A stretch of 64,000 nucleotides of DNA, from contig CAZRGC010000003.1 in NCBI GenBank assembly GCA_964599625.1, forward strand, positions 97,759-161,758, read 5' to 3'. Under the pieces are notes generated by a model. The model worked only from the letters and a program-made list of their open reading frames with translations, did no database searches and had not been told where the DNA came from. The position numbers and the translations under genes are program-made. This DNA is from an uncultured Gammaproteobacteria bacterium. GTDB taxonomy: Bacteria; Patescibacteriota; Microgenomatia; UBA8517. Shown here piece after piece: positions 7,650-39,017 of the stretch; within the stretch, counting starts at the first letter, position 1; each line of letters begins with the position of its first letter.

Positions 7650-9377
7650 ATGAAAACATCTTCGCAAAGCAAAAACATGAATGAAAAAAATATAAAAACC
7701 AATCCCTCGATAATGACAACAAAAGTTACAGGTGGAATGAAATTTATAGCACTTTCGGGAACAACAGGTGTTACAGAGAATCTTTATGTATATGAATACG
7801 GTAACGACATGGTTGTTGTTGACTGTGGTGTCGGGTTTCCCGAATCTGAAATGTTTGGGGTGGACCTGGTTATACCTGATTTTTCTTATATAAAACAAAA
7901 CGCCCACAAATTAAGAGGTGTTCTTATTTCTCATGGACACGAAGACCACATTGGAGGTTTACCTTTCCTGCTAAAGGAAGTAAAAACCACAGTGTATGCC
8001 AGTAAACTTGTTGCCGGTTTTATTCAGGAGAAACTTGATGATGCAGAGGTCCAGGGGAATATTAAAGTCTTTGACCCCGAACGTGATGTTTTGACACTTG
8101 GAGTTTTTAAAGTTACACCTTTCAGAGTTGCCCACTCGGTTCCCGATGGGGTTGGTTTTTGTATCGACACACCCGAAGGAAAAATGTTCCATGTGCCGGA
8201 TTACAAATTTGATTGGACACCTGTAGATGGTAGGCCGTTTGACGTCGCAAAACTTTCTGTTCTGGCATCTGGTGGTGCATTGGCCTTGGCATCGGATTCT
8301 CTGGGGTCTACTTCACCTGGATACACTGAAAGCGAGAGAGAGATAGAAGGCAGAATTGAACCTATTGTGCGGGACGCCAAAGGTAAGGTGTACCTGACCA
8401 CTATCTCGTCAAATATAAGTCGTATGCAGCAAACTCTTAATGTCGCAGCAAAAACAGGAAGAAAAGTATGTTTCATTGGCAGATCTATCGTCAGAAAGTC
8501 CGAAATAGCCAGAGATCTGGGTTTTATGTCGCAGGGGAACGGAATAATTGTTCAACCCAAACAAGCCGCCAAACTTCCACCCAATAAAGTTCTTTATATT
8601 ATTTCAGGTAGTTACGGTCAACCCGGAAGTGCACTATACAGGCTTTGTCTGGGCGACCACGACTTCTTGTCTATTGGCAGTAATGACGTGGTTATATTTT
8701 CGGCAGATCCTGCTCCTCCAGGCAGTAAGGCAAATGTTGATTTTTTGGTAGACAAATTAATCGAGTCTGATGTGGATGTGCATTATTACGACATGCAGGA
8801 AGATCTTCATGTTTCGGGACATGGATGTATCAAAGACATCGAAATGCTTTTTGCTTTAGTTAGACCAAAGTATTTTATACCAATTGGTGGAACAGTAAGA
8901 CACAATAGAGCATATGGACTTATTGCTCAAAGTATGGGTGCCGAAGAAAAAGAAATCCTTGCACTTTTGCCTGGCGACATTGTTGAGTTTAATTCTGGAA
9001 TAGCCAGAAGGTCCGGAAAAATTCAGGTTAAAGAGGTGCTGGTTGACGGATTAGGCATTGGAGATGTTGGCAATTCGGTATTAAGGGATAGACACATCCT
9101 TTCTAAAGAGGGAGTTGTTATTGCAATGTGCCAATTTGATCGCAACAACGGTGTTCTTTCCGCACTCCCCGAAATGATAAGCCGAGGTTTTGTTTTTGAA
9201 CAAAAATATGGCCGGCTTTTGGATGAAGCGTCACGGGACCTTGCAAAGGTCCTGGATAGAAAAAAGAATGTTAACGCGCTTTTTATACGAAACACTACGA
9301 TTGATTTTCTCGAAAAATATTTCTTCCAAAAAACAGGCAGGCGCCCAATGATACTTCCGTTGGTTGTGGAGACTTGA
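7650..9377 (+). CDS. rnj: ribonuclease J (metallo-beta-lactamase/beta-CASP)
   Basis: It carries HGHEDHIGG, the beta-CASP region and a C-terminal domain. The N-terminal ~25 aa are a probable overcall, and the start is more likely M7713 or M7738. Confidence 0.85.
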   Translation: MKTSSQSKNMNEKNIKTNPSIMTTKVTGGMKFIALSGTTGVTENLYVYEYGNDMVVVDCGVGFPESEMFGVDLVIPDFSYIKQNAHKLRGVLISHGHEDHIGGLPFLLKEVKTTVYASKLVAGFIQEKLDDAEVQGNIKVFDPERDVLTLGVFKVTPFRVAHSVPDGVGFCIDTPEGKMFHVPDYKFDWTPVDGRPFDVAKLSVLASGGALALASDSLGSTSPGYTESEREIEGRIEPIVRDAKGKVYLTTISSNISRMQQTLNVAAKTGRKVCFIGRSIVRKSEIARDLGFMSQGNGIIVQPKQAAKLPPNKVLYIISGSYGQPGSALYRLCLGDHDFLSIGSNDVVIFSADPAPPGSKANVDFLVDKLIESDVDVHYYDMQEDLHVSGHGCIKDIEMLFALVRPKYFIPIGGTVRHNRAYGLIAQSMGAEEKEILALLPGDIVEFNSGIARRSGKIQVKEVLVDGLGIGDVGNSVLRDRHILSKEGVVIAMCQFDRNNGVLSALPEMISRGFVFEQKYGRLLDEASRDLAKVLDRKKNVNALFIRNTTIDFLEKYFFQKTGRRPMILPLVVET

Positions 9378-19500: not shown

Positions 19501-19528
19501 TTGACATGGTGTATTTTTCTAATATAAT
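19501..19528 (+). promoter_or_regulatory. sigma70-type promoter for rpoB (TTGACA-N16-TATAAT)
   Basis: Both hexamers are exact consensus. Two hairpins follow in the leader at 19538-19557 and 19562-19581. Confidence 0.65.
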
Positions 19529-30805: not shown

Positions 30806-31600
30806 ATGAATTTCTTTAAGAAAGTTGCTTCTAGTGTTTATTCCCCGGAGTTCTATTCCCAAATACCCAAAATGACACTTGGTTCTGTGTTGGGTTATTT
30901 TTTCTTGCTGCTTCTAGTGGTCGAACTTGTCATGTTTGGCAAAAGCATGCCGGAGTTTATGTTTGGTTTCTCAGGAAAGATAAAATCTACAATAAGCGAG
31001 GTTATCGACACTTATCCCAGTAATTTGGTTTTGACAATCAAAGATGGAGCGCTTTCCACCAATGTTAAGGAGCCTTACTACCTTATGGATAAAACCAACA
31101 ACAAGTTCGCGGTTATAGACACAAAAACTGCATACTCTGCCGATCAATTTAAAAAGTACAACGTACCGGTCTGGGTTACCAAAGATACTGTTTTTTACCA
31201 AGACAGCGACCAAATCAAGAGCAATAGTTTTGTAGAGATGAAAGATATGGTGGTAAACAAAGAACTTGTAAACAGTTTTTCTGCCAAAATATCTCCCTGG
31301 ATTCCATATTTTGGCCCTGTTGTTATGATTTTTGCACTCGTAACTCTTTACGCCCTCCAATCTTTCAGACTGGTTTATGGGTTTTTCCTTGCACTTTTAA
31401 TTTTGCTGGTTGCCAAAATGACCAAGAAAAGTCTGACGTATAAAGAATCTTACAAAGTAGGGATATTTGCCATGACACTACCCTTTATTTTAGAAGCGCT
31501 TAATACCTATATCGGTTGGAAGGCTTTTCCGTTCACTTTTACTATAATTGCACTTATTGTTGTTGGCGTAAATTTTGCAGGATCCAACTCGAAGAAGTAG
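30806..31600 (+). CDS. hypothetical membrane protein between fusA and tuf
   Basis: 264 aa. It has an N-terminal TM helix, a central soluble region and about four C-terminal TM helices. Confidence 0.45.
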   Translation: MNFFKKVASSVYSPEFYSQIPKMTLGSVLGYFFLLLLVVELVMFGKSMPEFMFGFSGKIKSTISEVIDTYPSNLVLTIKDGALSTNVKEPYYLMDKTNNKFAVIDTKTAYSADQFKKYNVPVWVTKDTVFYQDSDQIKSNSFVEMKDMVVNKELVNSFSAKISPWIPYFGPVVMIFALVTLYALQSFRLVYGFFLALLILLVAKMTKKSLTYKESYKVGIFAMTLPFILEALNTYIGWKAFPFTFTIIALIVVGVNFAGSNSKK

Positions 31601-31610
31601 AATATTCCTA

Positions 31611-31640
31611 TTGACAGCTTTATTTAGGCTCAATTATAAT
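31611..31640 (+). promoter_or_regulatory. sigma70-type promoter for tuf (TTGACA-N18-TATAAT)
   Basis: Exact consensus hexamers 115 nt upstream of the tuf ATG. An inverted repeat gatttcttagagaaatc lies downstream of the -10. Confidence 0.6.
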
Positions 31641-31754
31641 TGCTCTAGGTAATTAGATTTCTTAGAGAAATCATAATAACTTTGGAGGCTAAATATGCCT
31701 CTTGTTTTTTGAAAGACAGTTATTTATACTAGCATTTCGGTAAAATTAAAAAAA

Positions 31755-32945
31755 ATGGCAGACGCAAAACAAAAATTTGATCGCAGCAAACCACACGTAA
31801 ACATTGGTACTATTGGTCACGTTGATCACGGAAAGACAACCTTGACCTCTGCTATCACCATGGTTCTTGCCAAGCAAGGACTCGCCACAGCTAAGAAATA
31901 CGAAGACATCGATTCAGCCCCAGAAGAGAAAGAAAGAGGAGTTACAATCAACCTTTCTCACCAAGAATACCAAACAGCAAAAAGACACTATGCTCATATT
32001 GACGCTCCTGGCCATGCCGACTATATCAAGAACATGATTACCGGTGCAGCACAAATGGACGGAGCAATTCTGGTTGTTTCCGCAGCAGACGGACCCATGC
32101 CTCAGACAAGAGAACACGTTATTTTGGCCAGACAGGTTAACGTGCCAGCTTTGGTAGTTTTCCTCAACAAATGTGATACAGTTGATGATCCAGAAATTAT
32201 CGACTTGGTAGAAGCAGACGTAAGAGAACTTCTCAAAAAATACGAATACCCAGGAGATGAAGTTCCTGTAATTCGAGGTTCCGCTCTCAAAGCAGTCGAA
32301 GGCGACGCAGAAGCAGAAAAGAAGATCACAGAGCTCATGGATGCAGTAGACAGCTACATCCCTGATCCTGTAAGACAAACAGATAAACCTTTCTTAATGC
32401 CTGTTGAAGACGTATTTACAATTTCAGGACGCGGAACAGTTGTTACAGGTAGAGTAGAACGCGGAGTTATCAAAGTTAACGAAGAAATTGAAATAGTTGG
32501 TATCAAAGACACAGCAAAGTCAGTTGTCACAGGTCTTGAGATGTTCAGGAAGACTTTGGACGAGGCTATGGCAGGTGACAACGTTGGAGTTCTTCTAAGA
32601 GGTGTAGAAAAAGATCAAGTAGAAAGAGGACAAGTTCTCGCAAAGTCGGGAAGTGTTACTCCGCACACAGAATTTGAAGCAGAAGTTTATATTCTTTCAA
32701 AGGAAGAAGGAGGAAGACACACGCCTTTCTTTACAGGTTACAAACCTCAGTTTTATATTAGGACTGCAGATGTAACAGGAGAAGCAACACTCCCCGAAGG
32801 AATCGAAATGGTTATGCCTGGCGACAACGCTAAGATGAAAGTCAAACTTATTCAGCCAGTAGCTCTCGAGGAAGGTCTTAGGTTTGCAATCAGAGAAGGC
32901 GGACACACAGTAGGTGCAGGAGTTATCACCAAGGTACTTGTATAA
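31755..32945 (+). CDS. tuf: elongation factor Tu
   Basis: [17 protein letters not shown] and NKCD motifs in a 396-aa protein. Confidence 0.97.
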
Positions 32946-32985
32946 CCGCTAAAAGCTTTCACGCTTCTAGCTCTTTCATAAGGAT

Positions 32986-33291
32986 ATGGCAATTAGACTA
33001 AGAGTCAAACTTAAAAGTTATGACCACAGGGTCTTAGATGAAGCAGCCGGTAAAATTATAGATACCGCGCTATCATCTGGTGCAAAAATTGTCGGTCCTA
33101 TTCCTCTCCCCACAAACCGCAGCGTAATGGCAATCAAAGAATCACCATTTACGGACAAAGACGCTCAGGAACACTTTGAAGTTCTAACCCACAAAAGACT
33201 TATTGATATTTTGGACCCAACCCCCAGAACTGTTGATTCTTTGGGCAACCTCGACCTCCCTGCGGGAGTTTCTATCGAGATTAAGATGTAA
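32986..33291 (+). CDS. rpsJ: 30S ribosomal protein S10
   Basis: A 101-aa protein with the [16 protein letters not shown] signature of S10/NusE. Confidence 0.95.
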
Positions 33292-33310
33292 GGCCTCTTG
33301 TTCGACCAAA

Positions 33311-33346
33311 CCCCATAGTTGGAATAACTGAACTACCTGATATAAT
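33311..33346 (+). promoter_or_regulatory. promoter-only copy of island cassette (CCCATAGTTGGAA-N16-TATAAT)
   Basis: It shares the CCCATAGTT-(-35) core with the three full cassettes. It lies immediately after the rpsJ stop. Confidence 0.45.
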
Positions 33347-33392
33347 GCCAATGTCTGAATTAAGTTAGATCTTTGTACAATCAAAAAGGAAT

Positions 33393-33701
33393 TTGACTAT
33401 GGATCCGATAAGAGTAGTTGTTGCAGTGGATGGCGACAAGGCAAAGTTCCACACCACTTTTCCGTTGGACGTGTATTTACCAGGACGACAAAAAAGGTCT
33501 GAAAAAGGCCAGGAGCTGGTAAACAAGTTGAAAGAGGTCAAGGGTATTAAAAACGAAGAGTTGGATATCTGGATCTACGAATATGAAATTTCGGCCAATA
33601 AGCTACACGCCTTTAAATGGAAGGATGAGGTCGCACCTGCTGTAGTTGAGGTTCTCAAGACCTTTTACAATCTCGGCACAGTCGAAATTGTATACGAATA
33701 A
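33393..33701 (+). CDS. hypothetical protein (island ORF 1)
   Basis: A 102-aa ORF with no recognisable motif. It is preceded by the cassette promoter. Confidence 0.4.
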   Translation: MTMDPIRVVVAVDGDKAKFHTTFPLDVYLPGRQKRSEKGQELVNKLKEVKGIKNEELDIWIYEYEISANKLHAFKWKDEVAPAVVEVLKTFYNLGTVEIVYE

Positions 33702-33734
33702 TACCCTGTCCGAATATCTGTTGTGTTAGTTTTT

Positions 33735-33823
33735 GCTCCGCTTTGTGGAAATTTCCCGGGCGGAGTTTTTTGTGGCCAACATTAGTCCCATAGTTGGATT
33801 TATGGTGGTTAATCTGCTAGAAT
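33735..33823 (+). repeat. hairpin + T-run + promoter cassette, copy A
   Basis: ctccgc…gcggag stem, TTTTTTGTGGCC, CCCATAGTTGGAT-N18-TAGAAT. Confidence 0.7.
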
Positions 33824-33866
33824 CCGCTAGCACGTTGAATTATTACAGAACGTCCTTGGAGGAACA

Positions 33867-35015
33867 ATGATTCTTGGACTGAAATTAACTGTCGAAAACG
33901 ACGATATTGTCGACATTGGCGGAGATTTGTACGTCAAAAACTCCAAAGCCATGAAGCGTCTTCACAGGGAGCTTCGCTACCTGGGATACCAAATCGACAA
34001 CTTGCGGCACGATAAATACCGCTTGGACAAGGGAGCCACCCCGCGCGAAATGGAAAAAGGTGGTTGGTCGCTTTGGTTTGCCAAGTTACCCAATATCAGA
34101 CGTGGTGTCTGTGGAAGCTGTGGAGCAACCATTTCCACTCTCGGCATTCAGTCACACGGCCACAAATGCGAGAGGTGCGGCGAAGTGACCTACTGGGAAA
34201 TGGTGGAAGGATCAGTAATCCGGTTCGTCTTTTTGCAAAAAGAGGGCCGTGGAATGTGGGATCCCGAGCTTAAGATGAAAGTGCACCATTGGGATACGCG
34301 TGAAGGGCTTTTATATCTTTACCCGGAAGCCTTGGAAGGTGGCCTTTCGACTGTGACGGGAGATACAGCACGGCAGTACTTGGGCAATAACCACGAAAAG
34401 TGGAATGTAGTCACGATCGATGGCCAAAAAATTATCGTGATCAAGTACCCCAAGCAGTGGCGGCGCGATACGGCTGTTATCGAACCTTATGAGATTTACG
34501 GTCATCAGTGGAATCACAAGATCGTCAAAATCTACAAAGGTAAACATTACAGTGACTGGGACCGGCTCCCTGTTCCCGAGACATTTTCTATCTACGAAAC
34601 CTGGCACTGGGACAAGCTTGTGGCTTCGCCAACATTGCACAGGCGTGTATTGCAGGCTGTTCACAACACCGATGACAAGGGTTGGCACTACCAAGACGGT
34701 CGTCCCTGGTTTAGAGAAGGAAGCTGGAAGGGCATGGCAAAGTTTATTCGCCATTTTACAGCCCTTGATGCTGATGCCTTTGACCGAGCCTGGCCACGTT
34801 TCAGAAACGACGGTCCCGGCGGGATCGACGACTTGGCACACTTCTGTCACCCCAAAGCCATCACTCGTGATGAGCCAAACATAGGTAATGTTCTTGTTGC
34901 CATGGGGAAACGCATGGAAAATAAGTCTCTCACGCGCGATGAGATCGAAGCAGCCAAACGCGGCTTGAGCGATCCATTGACGGGTGATTTTTTACGTTCC
35001 CTGCGTAAGCGTTAG
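33867..35015 (+). CDS. hypothetical Trp/His/Arg-rich protein with Cys4 zinc ribbon (island ORF 2)
   Basis: 382 aa containing CGSCG…(14)…CERCG and many W/H residues. Its GC looks clearly higher than the surrounding ribosomal genes. Confidence 0.45.
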   Translation: MILGLKLTVENDDIVDIGGDLYVKNSKAMKRLHRELRYLGYQIDNLRHDKYRLDKGATPREMEKGGWSLWFAKLPNIRRGVCGSCGATISTLGIQSHGHKCERCGEVTYWEMVEGSVIRFVFLQKEGRGMWDPELKMKVHHWDTREGLLYLYPEALEGGLSTVTGDTARQYLGNNHEKWNVVTIDGQKIIVIKYPKQWRRDTAVIEPYEIYGHQWNHKIVKIYKGKHYSDWDRLPVPETFSIYETWHWDKLVASPTLHRRVLQAVHNTDDKGWHYQDGRPWFREGSWKGMAKFIRHFTALDADAFDRAWPRFRNDGPGGIDDLAHFCHPKAITRDEPNIGNVLVAMGKRMENKSLTRDEIEAAKRGLSDPLTGDFLRSLRKR

Positions 35016-35018
35016 TTT

Positions 35019-35106
35019 TGGAGTCTCACTCCGCCTTGTGGAAATTTCCCGGGCGGAGTTTTTTGTGGCTAAAATAAGCCCCATAGTTTGACATAACTTT
35101 GAACCT
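35019..35106 (+). repeat. hairpin + T-run + promoter cassette, copy B
   Basis: ctccgc…gcggag stem, TTTTTTGTGGCT, CCCATAGTTTGACA-N17-TATATT. Confidence 0.7.
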
Positions 35107-35156
35107 TTGATATATTCACAAGGTTTATTTGCACATTATGGTTAAAAGGAGAGACT

Positions 35157-35660
35157 ATGGGAATTACCCATGCAGAGGGTGTTGACTTGCAAGAGTGGGC
35201 GAATGCTCACAAACCGGATGATGACTTGATTTACAGGGATGGTTATTGGCATCAAATCATCTTTGTCCGGGATCGCTTGCCACAGCCGCTTTTTGGCTCA
35301 TACGAAGAGTACAAAGCCAATCCGGTACGCGTGGTGGGTGATCATACAAGCAAATCAGTACTCCTTCCTGTTTACAGTATCAAATTTGCTCCTCTCGAAA
35401 TTCGGATGCGTTACAACTTTTACGACTGGAAAGTGAGTGTGGTATCTCAAGTTCCCATCAGGTCGAACTTTTACCCGTTCCTTTTTAGAGATGAAGCTGT
35501 GCACCCGGTTTATTTTGAGGGTTTTACCAATGACTGGGTTTTTGGCTCCTACTCTGCCGACAACACCAAATTTTCTGTTGAAATTAGCAACGAACACATG
35601 TTGTTCGCTTTCATGGCTATTTTAGCGGGTGATTTGGGCTTGGGAGGCAATAAGAAGTAG
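35157..35660 (+). CDS. hypothetical protein (island ORF 3)
   Basis: A 167-aa ORF with no recognisable motif. Confidence 0.4.
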   Translation: MGITHAEGVDLQEWANAHKPDDDLIYRDGYWHQIIFVRDRLPQPLFGSYEEYKANPVRVVGDHTSKSVLLPVYSIKFAPLEIRMRYNFYDWKVSVVSQVPIRSNFYPFLFRDEAVHPVYFEGFTNDWVFGSYSADNTKFSVEISNEHMLFAFMAILAGDLGLGGNKK

Positions 35661-35673
35661 TTTGGAGCTCAAC

Positions 35674-35761
35674 TCCGCTTTGTGGAAATTTCCCGAGCGG
35701 AGTTTTTTGTGGCAAAAACAAGTCCCATAGTTTGACAAAGCCTCGAATATGGTTTTATAAT
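35674..35761 (+). repeat. hairpin + T-run + promoter cassette, copy C
   Basis: ctccgc…gcggag stem, TTTTTTGTGGCA, CCCATAGTTTGACA-N18-TATAAT. Confidence 0.7.
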
Positions 35762-35922
35762 CATCTGTTGTCAGAAATTTGTACTTTACAAAAAATAGCT
35801 TGGCAGGCAGCTTTTTACCCGTAAAATTTATGGTTGAAAAGCTGCCTACGGATGATAGTGAGGCGTATGGGAGCACTCCTAAAACAAAAACCAAATAAAA
35901 ATTAGAAAGTAACAGGAGCAAA

Positions 35923-36300
35923 ATGTCTCAATCTCAAAAGCGCGTTTCCGAACGCGAGGTACCCGAAGTCAATCCCAACAAGAGGTTTTTCCCAGACTTT
36001 CCTCTTTGCAACGACACGGCTACCCACACAAGCTATTCATACAGGAACAAGAAGGATGTCGGTGAAAAGGGTGTCGCCTTGGTAGAGGCTGTTTTGGCAA
36101 TCCACGGCGTGATCGATCTGACGATCTCAAAGAATGAACTTCGGGTCGTCAAACAACCTGCCCACACCTGGGAAGAGGTTACACCTTTGATCCACAATGC
36201 TTTCAGGCATGTTTACGGCGACGATATCAAATTTATCGGAGAAAACAAGGCTATTTTGGCCTACAGACGTCTCCGAGTTGCCATGAACGTGGCTAAGTAA
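35923..36300 (+). CDS. hypothetical protein (island ORF 4)
   Basis: A 125-aa ORF. The 160-nt leader contains an 11-bp hairpin at 35805-35847. Confidence 0.4.
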   Translation: MSQSQKRVSEREVPEVNPNKRFFPDFPLCNDTATHTSYSYRNKKDVGEKGVALVEAVLAIHGVIDLTISKNELRVVKQPAHTWEEVTPLIHNAFRHVYGDDIKFIGENKAILAYRRLRVAMNVAK

Positions 36301-36315
36301 CATCAATGGCCTTCC

Positions 36316-36393
36316 GGCCCAAATCTCACAAGGTTTGGGCCTTTTTTGTGGGTTTGACCCGTGCTTGCGGCGTTTTGGTATATCTGATATAAT
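36316..36393 (+). repeat. degenerate cassette copy D: hairpin + T-run + promoter in front of rplC
   Basis: The stem is ggcccaaa…tttgggcc, followed by TTTTTTGTGGG and TTTGACC. A -10 TATAAT lies at 36388-36393 with a weak -35 TTGCGG. Confidence 0.55.
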
Positions 36394-36539
36394 TCCGAAT
36401 AACAAATATGGTGGTTACAATGTTTGCTCAACCACGCTAAGTTAGTCTTTGGCAGATGCCTCACTGGCGCCTTCCGAAGGCGCTTTTTTGTTTAATGTCC
36501 TTCGACTCGCAAGAGCTCGCTCTAGGATCCAAAACAAAT

Positions 36540-37265
36540 ATGATCAACACAATTTTAGGTTCCAAGCTGAAAAACAGTCAAACCTTCTTGCAAGGGTTTA
36601 GGATTCCCGTGACCAAAATCATGGCAGGCCCCTGTACAGTCACTCAAATTAAGAAAATGGACAAAGATGGATATTGGGCAGTTCAGATCGGATTCGGTAC
36701 CAGACGCACCAAAGTTACTTCAAAAGCACTCCAAGGACACCTCAAACTAACAGCAAAAGAAAACCTTTTCCCCAGACATCTTAGAGAAATAAGATTAACA
36801 GAAGAACCCGAGTTTAAAGTAGGCGATACAATAAATGTCGCCGATATTTTTGCTGCAGGGGACGTTGTTGCTGTCACTGGGGTTTCCAAAGGCAAGGGAT
36901 TTGCCGGCGTTGTCAAAAGGCACGGTTTTCGTGGAGGACCCAGAACTCATGGACAATCTGACCGCGAACGCGCACCCGGATCAATCGGACAAACAACAAC
37001 ACCAGGCAGGGTCTACAGAGGCAAAAGAATGGCAGGAAGAATGGGTGGCGAACAAATAACCATCAAAAATTTGCATGTGGTATCAGTGAATGCAGACACC
37101 GGCGAGGTGGAAATTTCAGGACAGGTTCCGGGATCCGTTGGAACACTTCTTTCAATCAAAAAGATCAAAGCAGGCAGTCTTAAAGATTTGGAACACGAAA
37201 CAGTTGCTCAGGTAGTAGAAGGAGAAGGTGCTAAGGTTGCAGGTTCGGCACCAAAATCAGAATAA
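36540..37265 (+). CDS. rplC: 50S ribosomal protein L3
   Basis: Homology begins at MINTILGSKLKNSQTF (M36540). The longer ORF starting at 36456 is an upstream overcall. Confidence 0.9.
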   Translation: MINTILGSKLKNSQTFLQGFRIPVTKIMAGPCTVTQIKKMDKDGYWAVQIGFGTRRTKVTSKALQGHLKLTAKENLFPRHLREIRLTEEPEFKVGDTINVADIFAAGDVVAVTGVSKGKGFAGVVKRHGFRGGPRTHGQSDRERAPGSIGQTTTPGRVYRGKRMAGRMGGEQITIKNLHVVSVNADTGEVEISGQVPGSVGTLLSIKKIKAGSLKDLEHETVAQVVEGEGAKVAGSAPKSE

Positions 37266-37270
37266 TCAAA

Positions 37271-37933
37271 ATGCTGAAAATAAATTCATACACACTCAAA
37301 GGTGAGAAGAAAGGAGAAATAGTTCTTCCCAAGGAGTTTGATGTCAAACTAAATCTTCCTTTGTTGGCTCAGGCAATTAGAGTTTACGAAGAAAGATCTC
37401 ATGTCGGTCTTAGAAACACAAAAACAAGATCCGAGGTCAACAGAACCACCAAAAAAATTTACAAACAAAAAGGAACAGGTGGGGCCAGACATGGAAGCAG
37501 ACGCGCTAACGTGTTTGTGGGCGGAGGCATAACTTTTGGTCCCAGACCGGAACGAAGAATCTTAACTCTTACTTCGGCTCTTAAGTCTTTGGCAAAAATG
37601 ACAGCCTTTGTTTACAAAGCAAGTGAAAAGTCGCTGATTGCTGTCGAAGGCCTTTCTAAAATTGATAAGACAAAAGTAGCCGGAGAATTTCTCAAAAAGT
37701 TATCCACCGAGCTTAAGGCAAATAGGTTCACTTTTGTAATTGCAGACAAAAACGCCGCTTCAAGAAAGTTCCTTAGAAACTTGGGCAATGCTGTTCCGAT
37801 TTCGTTCAAAGAAGTTAGCGCCTTTGATGTGGCCCGCGGTGGTGTTGTAATAATGGACGCTGATATTTTTGAAAAAGCAGCCGACAAAGCCGTAAAGACT
37901 GTCAAAAAGATAGCTGTTAAGAAGCAAACATAA
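37271..37933 (+). CDS. rplD: 50S ribosomal protein L4
   Basis: KQKGTGGARHGSRRANVFVGGGITFGPRP. Confidence 0.95.
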   Translation: MLKINSYTLKGEKKGEIVLPKEFDVKLNLPLLAQAIRVYEERSHVGLRNTKTRSEVNRTTKKIYKQKGTGGARHGSRRANVFVGGGITFGPRPERRILTLTSALKSLAKMTAFVYKASEKSLIAVEGLSKIDKTKVAGEFLKKLSTELKANRFTFVIADKNAASRKFLRNLGNAVPISFKEVSAFDVARGGVVIMDADIFEKAADKAVKTVKKIAVKKQT

Positions 37934-37950
37934 GAAATAAATATATAACT

Positions 37951-38226
37951 ATGATTAAACCAGTATTTACAGAAAAAAGTTTAACGCTTGCCAGACAGGG
38001 TAAGTATTCATTTTGGGTGGACAAAAATGCAACCAAGCCCGCGCTTAAGGCTGCCATTGCAAAAATGTTTGGAGTTCATGTTTTGTCCATTAAAACAATC
38101 ACCATCCCGGGTGAATCCAAAAGAAATGTACGAGGCAAAAAGATAGTTGTTCTCCCAAGTAAGAAGGCGGTTGTAACTCTCAAAAAAGACGAAAAAATAG
38201 ACATTTTTGAAGAAACCAAGAAATAA
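37951..38226 (+). CDS. rplW: 50S ribosomal protein L23
   Basis: A 91-aa protein with canonical L23 sequence. Confidence 0.93.
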   Translation: MIKPVFTEKSLTLARQGKYSFWVDKNATKPALKAAIAKMFGVHVLSIKTITIPGESKRNVRGKKIVVLPSKKAVVTLKKDEKIDIFEETKK

Positions 38227-38264
38227 AACATAGAATATAGAACATAAAACATAAAAAATAAAAT

Positions 38265-39017
38265 ATGAAAAGACTCAAATCAATATTATCCAAAAAATCA
38301 GGACGTGCAGGGGGAACAGTTGTTGTCAGACACCAAGGTGGACGACACAAAAGATTTTTGAGAGAAATCGATTTTAAGCGTGTTCACAAGGATGTTTGGG
38401 GAGTTGTTCAGGCAGTAGAATACGATCCCAACAGAAACTCAGAAATCGCCCTGGTACTTTACGAAAACGGCAAGAGAGGGTATATTTTGTCTCCTGTCGG
38501 TCTTACGGTTGGGATGAAGGTGATAAGCTCAGAGTCCGCGCCAATAGAGCCCGGGAACTCACTTCCTTTAAAATTGATTCCAGTGGGTGCTCAGGTTCAC
38601 AACATAGAATTAACAAAAGGCAAAGGTGGCCAAATAGTTAAAGGGGCAGGAAGCGCAGCCGTTATTTTTGGACGTGAAGAAGCTTGGATTTTGGTTAAGC
38701 TTCCGTCTGGAGAAATCAGAAGATTTGATCCGGAATGTTATGCCACAGTTGGTCAAGTCGGCAATGTTGATGCCAAAAACGAGATAATGGGGAAAGCGGG
38801 AAGAGTGAGGCATATGGGTGTAAGACCTTCAGTTCGTGGAGTTGCAATGCATCCTAATGCACATCCTCACGGAGGAGGAGAAGGAAGAAGTGGAATTGGT
38901 ATGAAGCACCCCAAGACTTTTTATGGTAGAAGTGCAGTCGGAAAAACAAGGGCTAAGAAAAAATATTCTGATAGACTAATAGTTCAAAGGAAGGGAGGCA
39001 AAGCCCTTCTGGGTTAA
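38265..39017 (+). CDS. rplB: 50S ribosomal protein L2
   Basis: GGRHKRFLREIDFKR…HPHGGGEGR. Confidence 0.96.
   Translation: MKRLKSILSKKSGRAGGTVVVRHQGGRHKRFLREIDFKRVHKDVWGVVQAVEYDPNRNSEIALVLYENGKRGYILSPVGLTVGMKVISSESAPIEPGNSLPLKLIPVGAQVHNIELTKGKGGQIVKGAGSAAVIFGREEAWILVKLPSGEIRRFDPECYATVGQVGNVDAKNEIMGKAGRVRHMGVRPSVRGVAMHPNAHPHGGGEGRSGIGMKHPKTFYGRSAVGKTRAKKKYSDRLIVQRKGGKALLG

Follow-up and report, generated by a model that had tools for sequence, protein, structure and literature searches.

Separately promoted and terminated accessory genes predicted at the rpsJ-rplC boundary of a Woesebacteria-related genome

The window analyzed here is a stretch of 64,000 nucleotides (nt) of contig CAZRGC010000003.1, whose ribosomal protein (r-protein) L3 is 73-79% identical to the L3 of named Candidatus Woesebacteria/Microgenomates genomes. 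It carries tuf and rpsJ, followed by rplC, rplD, rplW, rplB and the remaining S10/spc genes, all on the + strand. Between rpsJ and rplC lies an island of four open reading frames (ORFs), orf1 to orf4, which are genes out of place in a ribosomal cluster (Table 1). Each of the four is preceded by one promoter in which a CCCATAG box stands ahead of the -35 hexamer, and the junctions between them repeat this promoter together with a hairpin and a T-run. This island, its repeated junction module and the native rplC leader behind it are described below, together with the corresponding loci of related genomes.

Table 1. Features of the window around the rpsJ-rplC island (aa, amino acids; UTR, untranslated region)
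Feature	Positions	Strand	Details
rpoB, rpoC, rpsL, rpsG, fusA, DUF1189-type membrane gene			ahead of tuf
tuf	31755-32945	+	
rpsJ (S10)	32986-33291	+	last gene ahead of the island; from the ORF list and tblastn anchors
Island	33292-36364		begins 1 nt past the rpsJ stop codon
P1, promoter-only copy	33309-33346	+	ahead of orf1; box CCCATAG 33312-33318, -35 TTGGAA 33319-33324, 16-nt spacer with TG, -10 TATAAT 33341-33346
orf1	33399-33701	+	100 aa; cargo gene 1; function unassigned
Copy A	33724-33823	+	hairpin 33736-33765, T6 33766-33771, GTGGC 33772-33776, box CCCATAG 33787-33793
Copy A promoter		+	-35 TTGGAT 33794-33799, 18-nt spacer, -10 TAGAAT 33818-33823; read by eye from the sequence, outside the promoter-scan list
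orf2	33867-35015	+	382 aa; Zn-ribbon; cargo gene 2; hypothetical family conserved across Patescibacteria
Copy B	35017-35116	+	hairpin 35029-35058, T6 35059-35064, GTGGC 35065-35069, box 35080-35086
Copy B promoter		+	-35 TTGACA 35088-35093, 17-nt spacer with TG, -10 TATATT 35111-35116
orf3	35157-35660	+	167 aa; cargo gene 3; hypothetical family conserved in Patescibacteria
Copy C	35661-35761	+	hairpin 35673-35702, T6 35703-35708, GTGGC 35709-35713, box 35724-35730
Copy C promoter		+	-35 TTGACA 35732-35737, 18-nt spacer, -10 TATAAT 35756-35761; 12/12 hexamer match
Predicted 5' UTR of orf4	35762-35922	+	~160 nt; 21-nt inverted repeat at 35805-35847
orf4	35923-36300	+	125 aa; cargo gene 4
Right-end terminator	36316-36351	+	stem-loop GGCCCAAATCTCACAAGGTTTGGGCC (36316-36341, 11 pairs), then TTTTTTGTGG; hairpin family unlike that of copies A-C
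Native rplC promoter and conserved leader	36365-36539	+	-35 TTGCGG 36365-36370, 17-nt spacer, -10 TATAAT 36388-36393
Leader elements of the window			leader helix P1 36411-36416 with 36430-36435; attenuator hairpin 36466-36484 followed by T6
rplC (L3)	36540-37265	+	opens the downstream r-protein operon

Repeated junctions within the island

A direct-repeat search of the window returned a three-copy family of 87 nt (33724-33810, 35017-35103 and 35661-35747), 75-85% identical between copies. The module repeat comprises three full copies of ~87-100 nt each (A, B and C) and one promoter-only copy (P1); all share one orientation, and each lies exactly between a stop codon and the next gene start. 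The repeat search of the window revealed no terminal inverted repeats or target-site duplications at the copies, and no copy was found outside the island in the window or in the related loci searched. A previous sequence-only reading of this DNA had counted five cassette copies. The three full copies and P1 stand; the supposed degenerate fifth copy ahead of rplC is the native rplC promoter and leader. The TTTTTTGTGG tail and a generic extended -10 (TGnTATAAT) are all that this orf4-rplC element has in common with the modules; its hairpin belongs to another family that is also present in the related locus L124, and its -35, formerly given as TTGACC, is the TTGCGG of the lineage-wide native promoter. 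By and large the earlier observation holds, at a level far above chance.

The first part of the module has, as that reading proposed, all the sequence features of an intrinsic terminator. The 30-nt hairpin pattern CTCCGCYTTGTGGAAATTTCCCGRGCGGAG has exactly three matches in the 64 kb, with 0 expected and none in 100 shuffles. Folding energies are -16.4 kcal/mol for copy A, -21.2 kcal/mol for B, -20.8 kcal/mol for C and -18.2 kcal/mol for the right-end terminator (z-scores of -2.0 to -2.7 against shuffles), and TTTTTT begins at the first base past the stem in all four, so that both hairpin stability and T-run spacing are terminator-like. The hairpins start 34, 13 and 12 nt past the stops of orf1, orf2 and orf3. 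Among copies they differ only at positions 7 and 24 of the 30-mer, which are mutually paired, as U·G in A, C-G in B and U-A in C; since a single base pair is concerned, the compensatory support for the stem is modest.

The second part has the features of a sigma-70-type promoter and is headed by the box, again in agreement with the earlier description. The pattern CCCATAGTTKGA matches the + strand four times, at 33312, 33787, 35080 and 35724, each time inside the island, and its sole other match, with one mismatch, lies on the - strand at 8927 (0.49 expected; five matches in 0 of 100 shuffles). CCCATAG is identical in all four promoters, and their spacers measure 16-18 nt. P1, B and C were recovered by the promoter scan (33319-33346, 35088-35116 and 35732-35761) with 10 to 12 of the 12 hexamer positions matching the consensus. 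Other near-consensus promoters of the window, at 19501 and 31611, have no box. The proposal that every island ORF has its own promoter copy holds for all four.

Conservation along the module is uneven. From the hairpin to GTGGC, 39-40 of 41 positions are identical among copies, and the box is identical at 7 of 7; the 10-nt spacer between GTGGC and the box, which is A-rich in copy A, is 60-70% identical, and the interval from -35 to -10 is poorly conserved. Such a pattern fits selection or gene conversion acting on the functional parts. The distance from hairpin to box is exactly 21 nt in A, B and C, which suggests that the junction was copied as one unit. The repeated 'cassette' is the junction of two units, i.e., the terminator of the upstream gene and the promoter of the next one: copy A would form the end of the orf1 unit and the start of the orf2 unit, and the hairpin of copy B would be the 3' terminator belonging to orf2.

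Logan short-read contigs of the same organism (L001-L003, from SRR31638238, SRR29708228 and SRR14932608) measure ~1.32 kb and end exactly at copies A and B. The module repeats would leave this region of the ribosomal cluster fragmented in routine short-read assemblies.

The promoter box and terminator families in related genomes

A collection of 80 metagenome loci with RpsJ relatives (73-95% identical) was retrieved, and rplC was placed in them; the RpsJ of the window is 94% identical to that of locus L004 and 87% to that of L025. The expression CCATA[GA], followed after 0-3 nt by TTG...TAnnnT, was run on the + strand of all loci and gave 12 sites, 11 of them in rpsJ-rplC gaps, which make up ~10% of the sequence. 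CCCATA is invariant in 12 of the 12 aligned sites, from seven genomes, and the -35 is variable (TTGGAA, TTGGAT, TTGACA, TTGAAT, TTGATT and TTGACT). A sequence-only model, R1, was built from these sites and searched over 947 kb on both strands. It yielded 14 matches with E < 2e-5, all on the gene strand, 13 of them in rpsJ-rplC gaps and one after fusA; the motif is therefore not scattered. P1 is matched at 33307-33349 (E 1.7e-5) and copy A with E 1.7e-7. Regarding the conservation beyond the hexamers that had been noticed earlier in both CCCATAG and GTGGC, only the former is confirmed between genomes. GTGGC is not conserved between them and is not counted as a separate site, because the T-runs of island terminators and rplC attenuators in relatives are likewise followed by GTG, GG or GGC.

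Beyond its training set, R1 found new sites in L034 and L037, each a few nucleotides past the rpsJ stop, and box promoters occupy this position, as P1 does, in L046, L124 and L125 as well. L124 has two box sites, CCTATAG and CCCTGTAG. In the closed genome CP066686.1, the site CCCCATAGTCTTGACT-17-TATCAT starts 1 nt past the rpsJ stop (E 1.9e-8), and in L123 the site CCTATAGTTTGAT-17-TATAAT (E 2.9e-5) precedes an orf2 homologue outside the ribosomal cluster. Box-like promoters, CCCTATAGTATTGACT and ACCTATAGCTTTGACT, also precede the orf2 homologues of Collierbacteria (L008/L011/L018), and the CCYATAG form recurs in further relatives. The orf2 homologues of other classes of the candidate phyla radiation (CPR) have plain TTGACA promoters with no box upstream. 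Judged from these alignments, the box, in its general form CCYATAG with 0-2 nt between it and the -35, is a real, lineage-restricted promoter element. Within the surveyed sequence, it appears to mark inserted accessory genes.

In L082 (2309-3086), a box promoter (R1 match L082:2323) stands directly past the fusA stop and is followed by an inserted 233-aa ORF without a family. By its sequence context, this fusA site is a second insertion point in the str/S10 cluster with the same promoter type.

Two other identities of the box were considered and rejected. A phage-type (T7-like) promoter, read from ACTATAGGG as the reverse complement of CCCTATAGT variants, would point away from the genes; this sequence is moreover absent from the window boxes (CCCATAG), and a correctly spaced -10 lies on the gene strand. 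The CtsR operator consensus consists of two heptads, and for a CtsR-like operator (reverse complement with AGTCAAA) the second heptad is missing. In viral contigs, the box-promoter pattern gave 14 matches, approximately the chance level for 16 specified bases by a rough estimate, and the hairpin pattern gave 0.

Hairpins like that of the window (arms CTCCGC and GCGGAG, then T6) directly follow orf2 homologues in two other genomes, as CCTCCGTTTTTTGGGAAATTTTCTCAGACGGAGG with T7 in Woesebacteria L007/L010 and as CCTCCGTTTTGAGAGATTTTTCTCAGACGGAGG with T7 in L123. Aligned with the window hairpin they leave 23 invariant columns, and they fold at -20 to -23 kcal/mol; in L007 and L123, no promoter stands behind the hairpin. 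Because similar hairpins trail orf2 homologues in other genomes, copy B seems to be the original, from which A and C would have been copied locally. A second terminator family, TAGCCCTGAAC...GTTCAGGGCTA with T7, occurs only within rpsJ-rplC islands, in five genomes (three copies in L025 and one each in L032, L034, L039 and CP066686.1). A third, GGCCCAAA...TTTGGGCC, stands at the right end of the island in both the window and L124, and a fourth, GGCGCTTACC...GGGAGCGCC, is common to L004 and L124. The window-type hairpin has 0 matches in 120+ related loci.

Terminator and box promoter are not always joined: P1 and the box promoters of L004, L034, L037, L123 and L125 have no hairpin upstream. Among ~12 multi-gene islands, only those of the window and L025 contain a terminator, or a terminator-promoter junction, more than once, and L025 repeats another terminator and a box promoter that are not always fused. 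A hairpin fused to a promoter and repeated in one island is seen in this genome only; repeated modules were sought in ten other islands and none were found. By this comparison, the repetition is a local duplication and not a rule.

Long, hairpin-rich 5' UTRs of 110-180 nt follow several box promoters (window 35762-35922, L025:2620-2800 and L037:1975-2110), and those of L025 and L037 have AAATATTGCGGA in common. They may be cis-regulatory RNAs.

The native rplC leader, the insertion site and its cargo

A native-type promoter and a conserved leader of ~90-100 nt precede rplC in 59 loci (57 aligned after trimming), for example L004:7500-7650, L025:5100-5284 and L125:5800-6003, plus ~55 further loci. 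The lineage promoter has the form cTTGCG or TTGACG with a 17-nt spacer ending in TTTGnTATAAT. The leader consists of a 5' helix, GTGGTT/AACCAC (GGAGG/CCTC in some), a conserved middle and a GGCGCC...GGCGCC hairpin with a T-run, which lies 20-90 nt ahead of the rplC start. In an alignment of 34 leaders, the two helices are 89% paired, with five pairs showing changes on both sides; none of 500 shuffles reached as high a covariation score, and pairing falls to 39-62% when the partners are slid. These counts refer to two hand-specified helices; RNAalifold on the same alignment gave only four pairs, owing to alignment shifts.

No Rfam 15 family matches the leader, and a scan of positions 31000-39000 (E <= 10) returned only sub-threshold chance matches, the best at 25.6 bits against a gathering score of 50. 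In a published survey of r-leader candidates, Archaeoglobi are the only group with a listed leader upstream of rplC (PMC7247131). The rplC leader is a candidate new autoregulatory r-protein attenuator, which may respond to L4 or L3, and is apparently undescribed. From this arrangement, rpsJ is part of the tuf unit in this lineage, and the island lies at an operon boundary.

The leader also bears on the annotation of L3. The mechanical ORF list starts L3 at an upstream ATG inside the leader/attenuator (window 36456-37265), and most database L3 entries, with 251-293 aa against a conserved core of ~241 aa, likewise start in the leader. The conserved start, MINTILG, lies at 36540 with CCAAAACAAAT and no Shine-Dalgarno sequence ahead of it, so the L3 N-termini of the lineage are probably mis-annotated.

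A strong terminator stands directly upstream of the rplC promoter in the window, where it ends the island 18 nt before the native -35, and in L004, L124, L025, L032, L034, L125 and L046; genomes with a terminator in this position are mostly those with box promoters in the island. 'Empty' genomes have no terminator between rpsJ and the rplC promoter. Some island-bearing genomes show a near-consensus rplC -35 with the conserved upstream context GAAGCTAATTGACG, and the empty ones mostly have cTTGCG. The near-consensus -35 may offset lost read-through from tuf-rpsJ, though -35 type and island are not strictly correlated.

Between the rpsJ stop and the rplC start lie ~120-210 nt, i.e., promoter and leader only, in ~27 loci and 0.3-7.6 kb in ~38 loci, a size range that indicates an insertion hotspot. 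Its cargo is unrelated between genomes and includes an RRM protein, a DEAD-box helicase, a PD-(D/E)XK nuclease, a zincin, an HTH_3/DUF3467 protein, a histidine phosphatase, an epimerase, DUF7919 and many proteins without a family. No integrase, recombinase or transposase was found among the examined island proteins of the window or its relatives. The closest orf2/orf3 homologues also lie in rpsJ-rplC gaps, with other neighbours (L004, 69%; L124, 64%; L025, 60%), and the island of L025 includes an orf3 homologue that is 60% identical. More distant homologues are found by Lon in Woesebacteria CP066686.1 and by a serine recombinase in Collierbacteria, and the L123 homologue adjoins LexA, RhuM and a type I restriction system. 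Together with a promoter and a terminator, orf2 occurs in three different genomic contexts.

None of the four island proteins, orf1 included, has a significant match in Pfam, PHROGs, PADLOC or NCBIfam; orf4 has a weak Nfu_N-like match (PF08712, E 2.4e-5) whose 24.7 bits are below the Pfam cut-off of 27. Comparison of orf1 with orf4 showed no similarity. Homologues number 102 for orf2 and 56 for orf3, and one of orf2, 27% identical, occurs even in a Woesearchaeota metagenome-assembled genome. The orf2 alignment (A2) contains an invariant CxxC...CxxC Zn-ribbon and a conserved motif with the consensus DKGWHYQDGRPWF. The AlphaFold model of orf2 is confident (predicted local distance difference test score, pLDDT, of 92) and has no significant fold match in the PDB; orf2 may represent a new fold or family. 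Its G+C content is 0.48-0.53, against ~0.42 in the flanks.

Several observations concern the edges of these islands. In many of them, the gene immediately past rpsJ is a recurrent one of ~180-194 aa (e.g., L035, L043, L047, L086 and L087, among the rpsJ-rplC gaps L029-L108). At L025:1340-1385, ~110 nt past the true rpsJ end, lies a degenerate duplicate of the final ~27 nt of rpsJ including its stop (GGTGTCAGCATAGAAGTTAAAATGTAG), which may be an insertion scar. The left end of the window island (33292-33390) looks like a degenerate version of the native rplC promoter-leader region: in relatives, CTCTTGCGTGACC is the counterpart of CTCTTGTTCGACC, CTGATATAAT recurs at 36384-36393, and TAAGTTAGATCTTTG compares with TAAGTTAGTCTTTGG of the leader at 36438-36452. 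This likeness suggests that the island was inserted into the promoter-leader region or formed with a duplication of it.

Interpretation and comparison with known systems

We consider it fairly probable that the island is a tandem series of individually promoted and terminated ('moron-like') expression units at an operon boundary, shielding the rplC attenuator; insulated, separately promoted units appear to be the reading best supported by the sequence. An accessory-gene array would have been inserted where the tuf-rpsJ unit ends, with rpsJ as the last gene of that unit on one side and the native rplC promoter and attenuator leader on the other. Each unit would consist of its own sigma-70-type promoter, with a CCYATAG box abutting the -35, the gene and a strong intrinsic terminator. 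The hairpin is probably derived from the 3' terminator of orf2; joined to a box promoter, it would have spread by local copying to three junctions, with selection keeping both stem and box. Transcription entering from tuf-rpsJ or begun at an island promoter would halt at the next terminator, and the following gene would be re-initiated at its own box promoter. The last terminator (36316-36347) would shield the rplC leader/attenuator, so that the leader would be transcribed only from its own start, as required for correct folding of the attenuator. Through the common box, the four cargo genes could receive one shared input, either a sigma/RNA-polymerase contact or a DNA-binding factor.

Several points weigh against this reading. 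We infer initiation, the efficiency of termination and insulation, like co-regulation through the box and the copying history, from sequence alone. The three module copies are recent paralogues, so their similarity by itself is no proof of function. Training sequences account for 12 of the 14 strong R1 matches, and the independent sites are those of L034 and L037 and, later, of L123, L124 and L125. The 947 kb consist mostly of ribosomal and translation gene neighbourhoods with few independent promoters, and the apparent restriction of the box to islands may partly reflect this sampling. The terminators of L007 and L123 are moderately similar to the window hairpin, and convergence could account for this. 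Finally, 26 of 40 islands in relatives have no terminator ahead of the rplC promoter, which means that insulation is not needed for insertion at the rpsJ-rplC site.

The modules could instead be portable homology or recombination sites of a gene-capture platform, through which cargo is gained, lost and swapped at the rpsJ-rplC boundary, e.g., by homologous recombination after natural transformation; they would then be scars first and transcription signals second. This is compatible with cargo that differs among close relatives sharing the promoter box and terminator families, with the three genomic contexts of orf2 and its signals, with the constant 21 nt from terminator to box, which points to a junction copied whole, with the duplicated rpsJ 3' end in the L025 island and with the promoter- and leader-like left end of the window island. 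In addition, natural competence has been reported in Patescibacteria (PMC10633639; preprint PMC10187176). Against this, none of the examined islands encodes a recombinase, integrase or transposase, attC-like core sites and target-site duplications are absent, nothing in the data points to recombination breakpoints inside the modules, and only 2 of ~12 multi-gene islands have fused or repeated modules. Vertical inheritance with local duplication explains the shared modules equally, and we regard capture as an unlikely primary role. Similarly doubtful is the more far-reaching idea that the rpsJ-rplC junction in Woesebacteria is a dedicated 'expression dock', whose cargo is exchanged by recombination at the CCYATAG promoter and terminator families and read by one box factor. 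If true, the dock would amount to an integron-like system of capture and co-regulation without an integrase, inside the most conserved gene cluster of the genome and kept apart from an undescribed rplC attenuator.

The 30-nt inverted repeat, with its perfect central GGAAATTTCC palindrome, could also be read as a double-stranded DNA operator for a dimeric regulator, acting ~50-80 bp upstream of the box promoters as a composite with CCCATAG rather than as a terminator. The palindrome core is identical in three copies at a fixed distance from the promoter, and in Collierbacteria L008 the box promoter ahead of the orf2 homologue has a comparable hairpin and T-rich tail upstream of it, even though the upstream neighbour gene is on the opposite strand. 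Yet the substitutions between copies preserve pairing and not sequence, and between genomes the stem sequence is wholly different (CTCCGC, CCCCCC, TAGCCCTGAAC, GGCCCAAA), with hairpin, T-run and post-stop position kept. Together with the box promoters that lack an upstream hairpin and the hairpins of L007 and L123 that lack a promoter behind them, this makes an operator improbable. More improbable still is a generic interspersed repeat, of the repetitive extragenic palindromic (REP), miniature inverted-repeat transposable element (MITE) or Correia type, that landed in the island by chance with promoter- and terminator-like sequence. Assemblers do treat the module as repeated, as the orf2 contigs ending at it demonstrate, but the three local copies alone account for those breaks. 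The confinement of the module to the island within the 64 kb, the absence of the window-type hairpin from the related loci and viral contigs, the single orientation with exact placement between stop codon and gene start, and the lack of terminal inverted repeats and target-site duplications all speak against such a repeat.

If the separately promoted units are read correctly, they show a reduced, uncultivated CPR lineage placing variable accessory genes in its ribosomal cluster without disturbing that cluster. The locus also offers a concrete promoter feature that can be tested, CCYATAG abutting the -35, in a group whose transcription signals are almost uncharacterized, and it exposes a conserved, unannotated rplC leader/attenuator that gene callers now absorb into an N-terminally extended L3. 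Should genetic tools for Patescibacteria arise, the modules could be usable as ready-made expression parts.

Integron arrays resemble the island in their tandem, unrelated small genes bounded by similar imperfect inverted repeats and in their variable cargo. Integron cassettes are mostly promoterless, and attC core sites follow RYYYAAC ... GTTRRRY. An attC array was rejected for the window: there is no intI or attI (the flanks are tuf, rpsJ, rplC and rplD), the repeat arms are CTCCGC/GCGGAG without RYYYAAC/GTTRRRY cores, each island gene has its own promoter, and the repeats carry terminator-like T-runs. Phage morons are closer in organization, with promoter, gene and terminator as a unit, insertion within a conserved cluster and variable cargo, and the orf2 unit occurs in different contexts. 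Unlike morons, the island resides in the chromosomal tuf-rpsJ/rplC cluster and not in a prophage, with no nearby phage genes, no PHROG matches and no viral-contig matches to the hairpin.

Multigene insertions at the boundaries between concatenated ribosomal and transcription operons (rpoBC-str-S10-spc) are described for Gammaproteobacteria by Brandis, Cao and Hughes (2019, PMC6735719). Accessory DNA at an operon boundary is common to both cases. The boundary here is set by the native rplC promoter and leader, falls inside the single S10 operon of E. coli, is hypervariable across one CPR lineage and comes with a shared box and terminator families. The rplC element in turn recalls the E. coli S10 leader, which mediates L4-dependent attenuation, and the L4 r-leader candidate of Archaeoglobi (Eckert and Weinberg 2020, PMC7247131), both in its structured leader and in its terminator hairpin upstream of rplC-rplD-rplW-rplB. 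It differs from the E. coli leader in lying between rpsJ and rplC, not upstream of rpsJ, and in belonging to the Woesebacteria/Microgenomates lineage.

At the level of single elements, the island is built from known kinds of signals, namely ordinary promoters and intrinsic terminators, and its informative side is the setting in which they occur. The hairpins resemble intrinsic (Rho-independent) terminators in their G+C-rich stem-loop, immediate T-run, post-stop position and location on the gene strand, and the promoters resemble sigma-70-type promoters in TTGACA- and TATAAT-like hexamers with 16-18 nt between them and, in some cases, an extended TG. UP elements are A/T-rich, and the window box is not. 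In contrast to ordinary operon junctions, the terminator-promoter junction occurs three times within 2 kb, and in contrast to ordinary sigma-70 promoters, CCCATAG/CCYATAG abuts the -35 and is better conserved between genomes than the -35 itself. What appears new is the lineage-specific promoter box, the reusable terminator families and the hypervariable islet at the rpsJ-rplC boundary.

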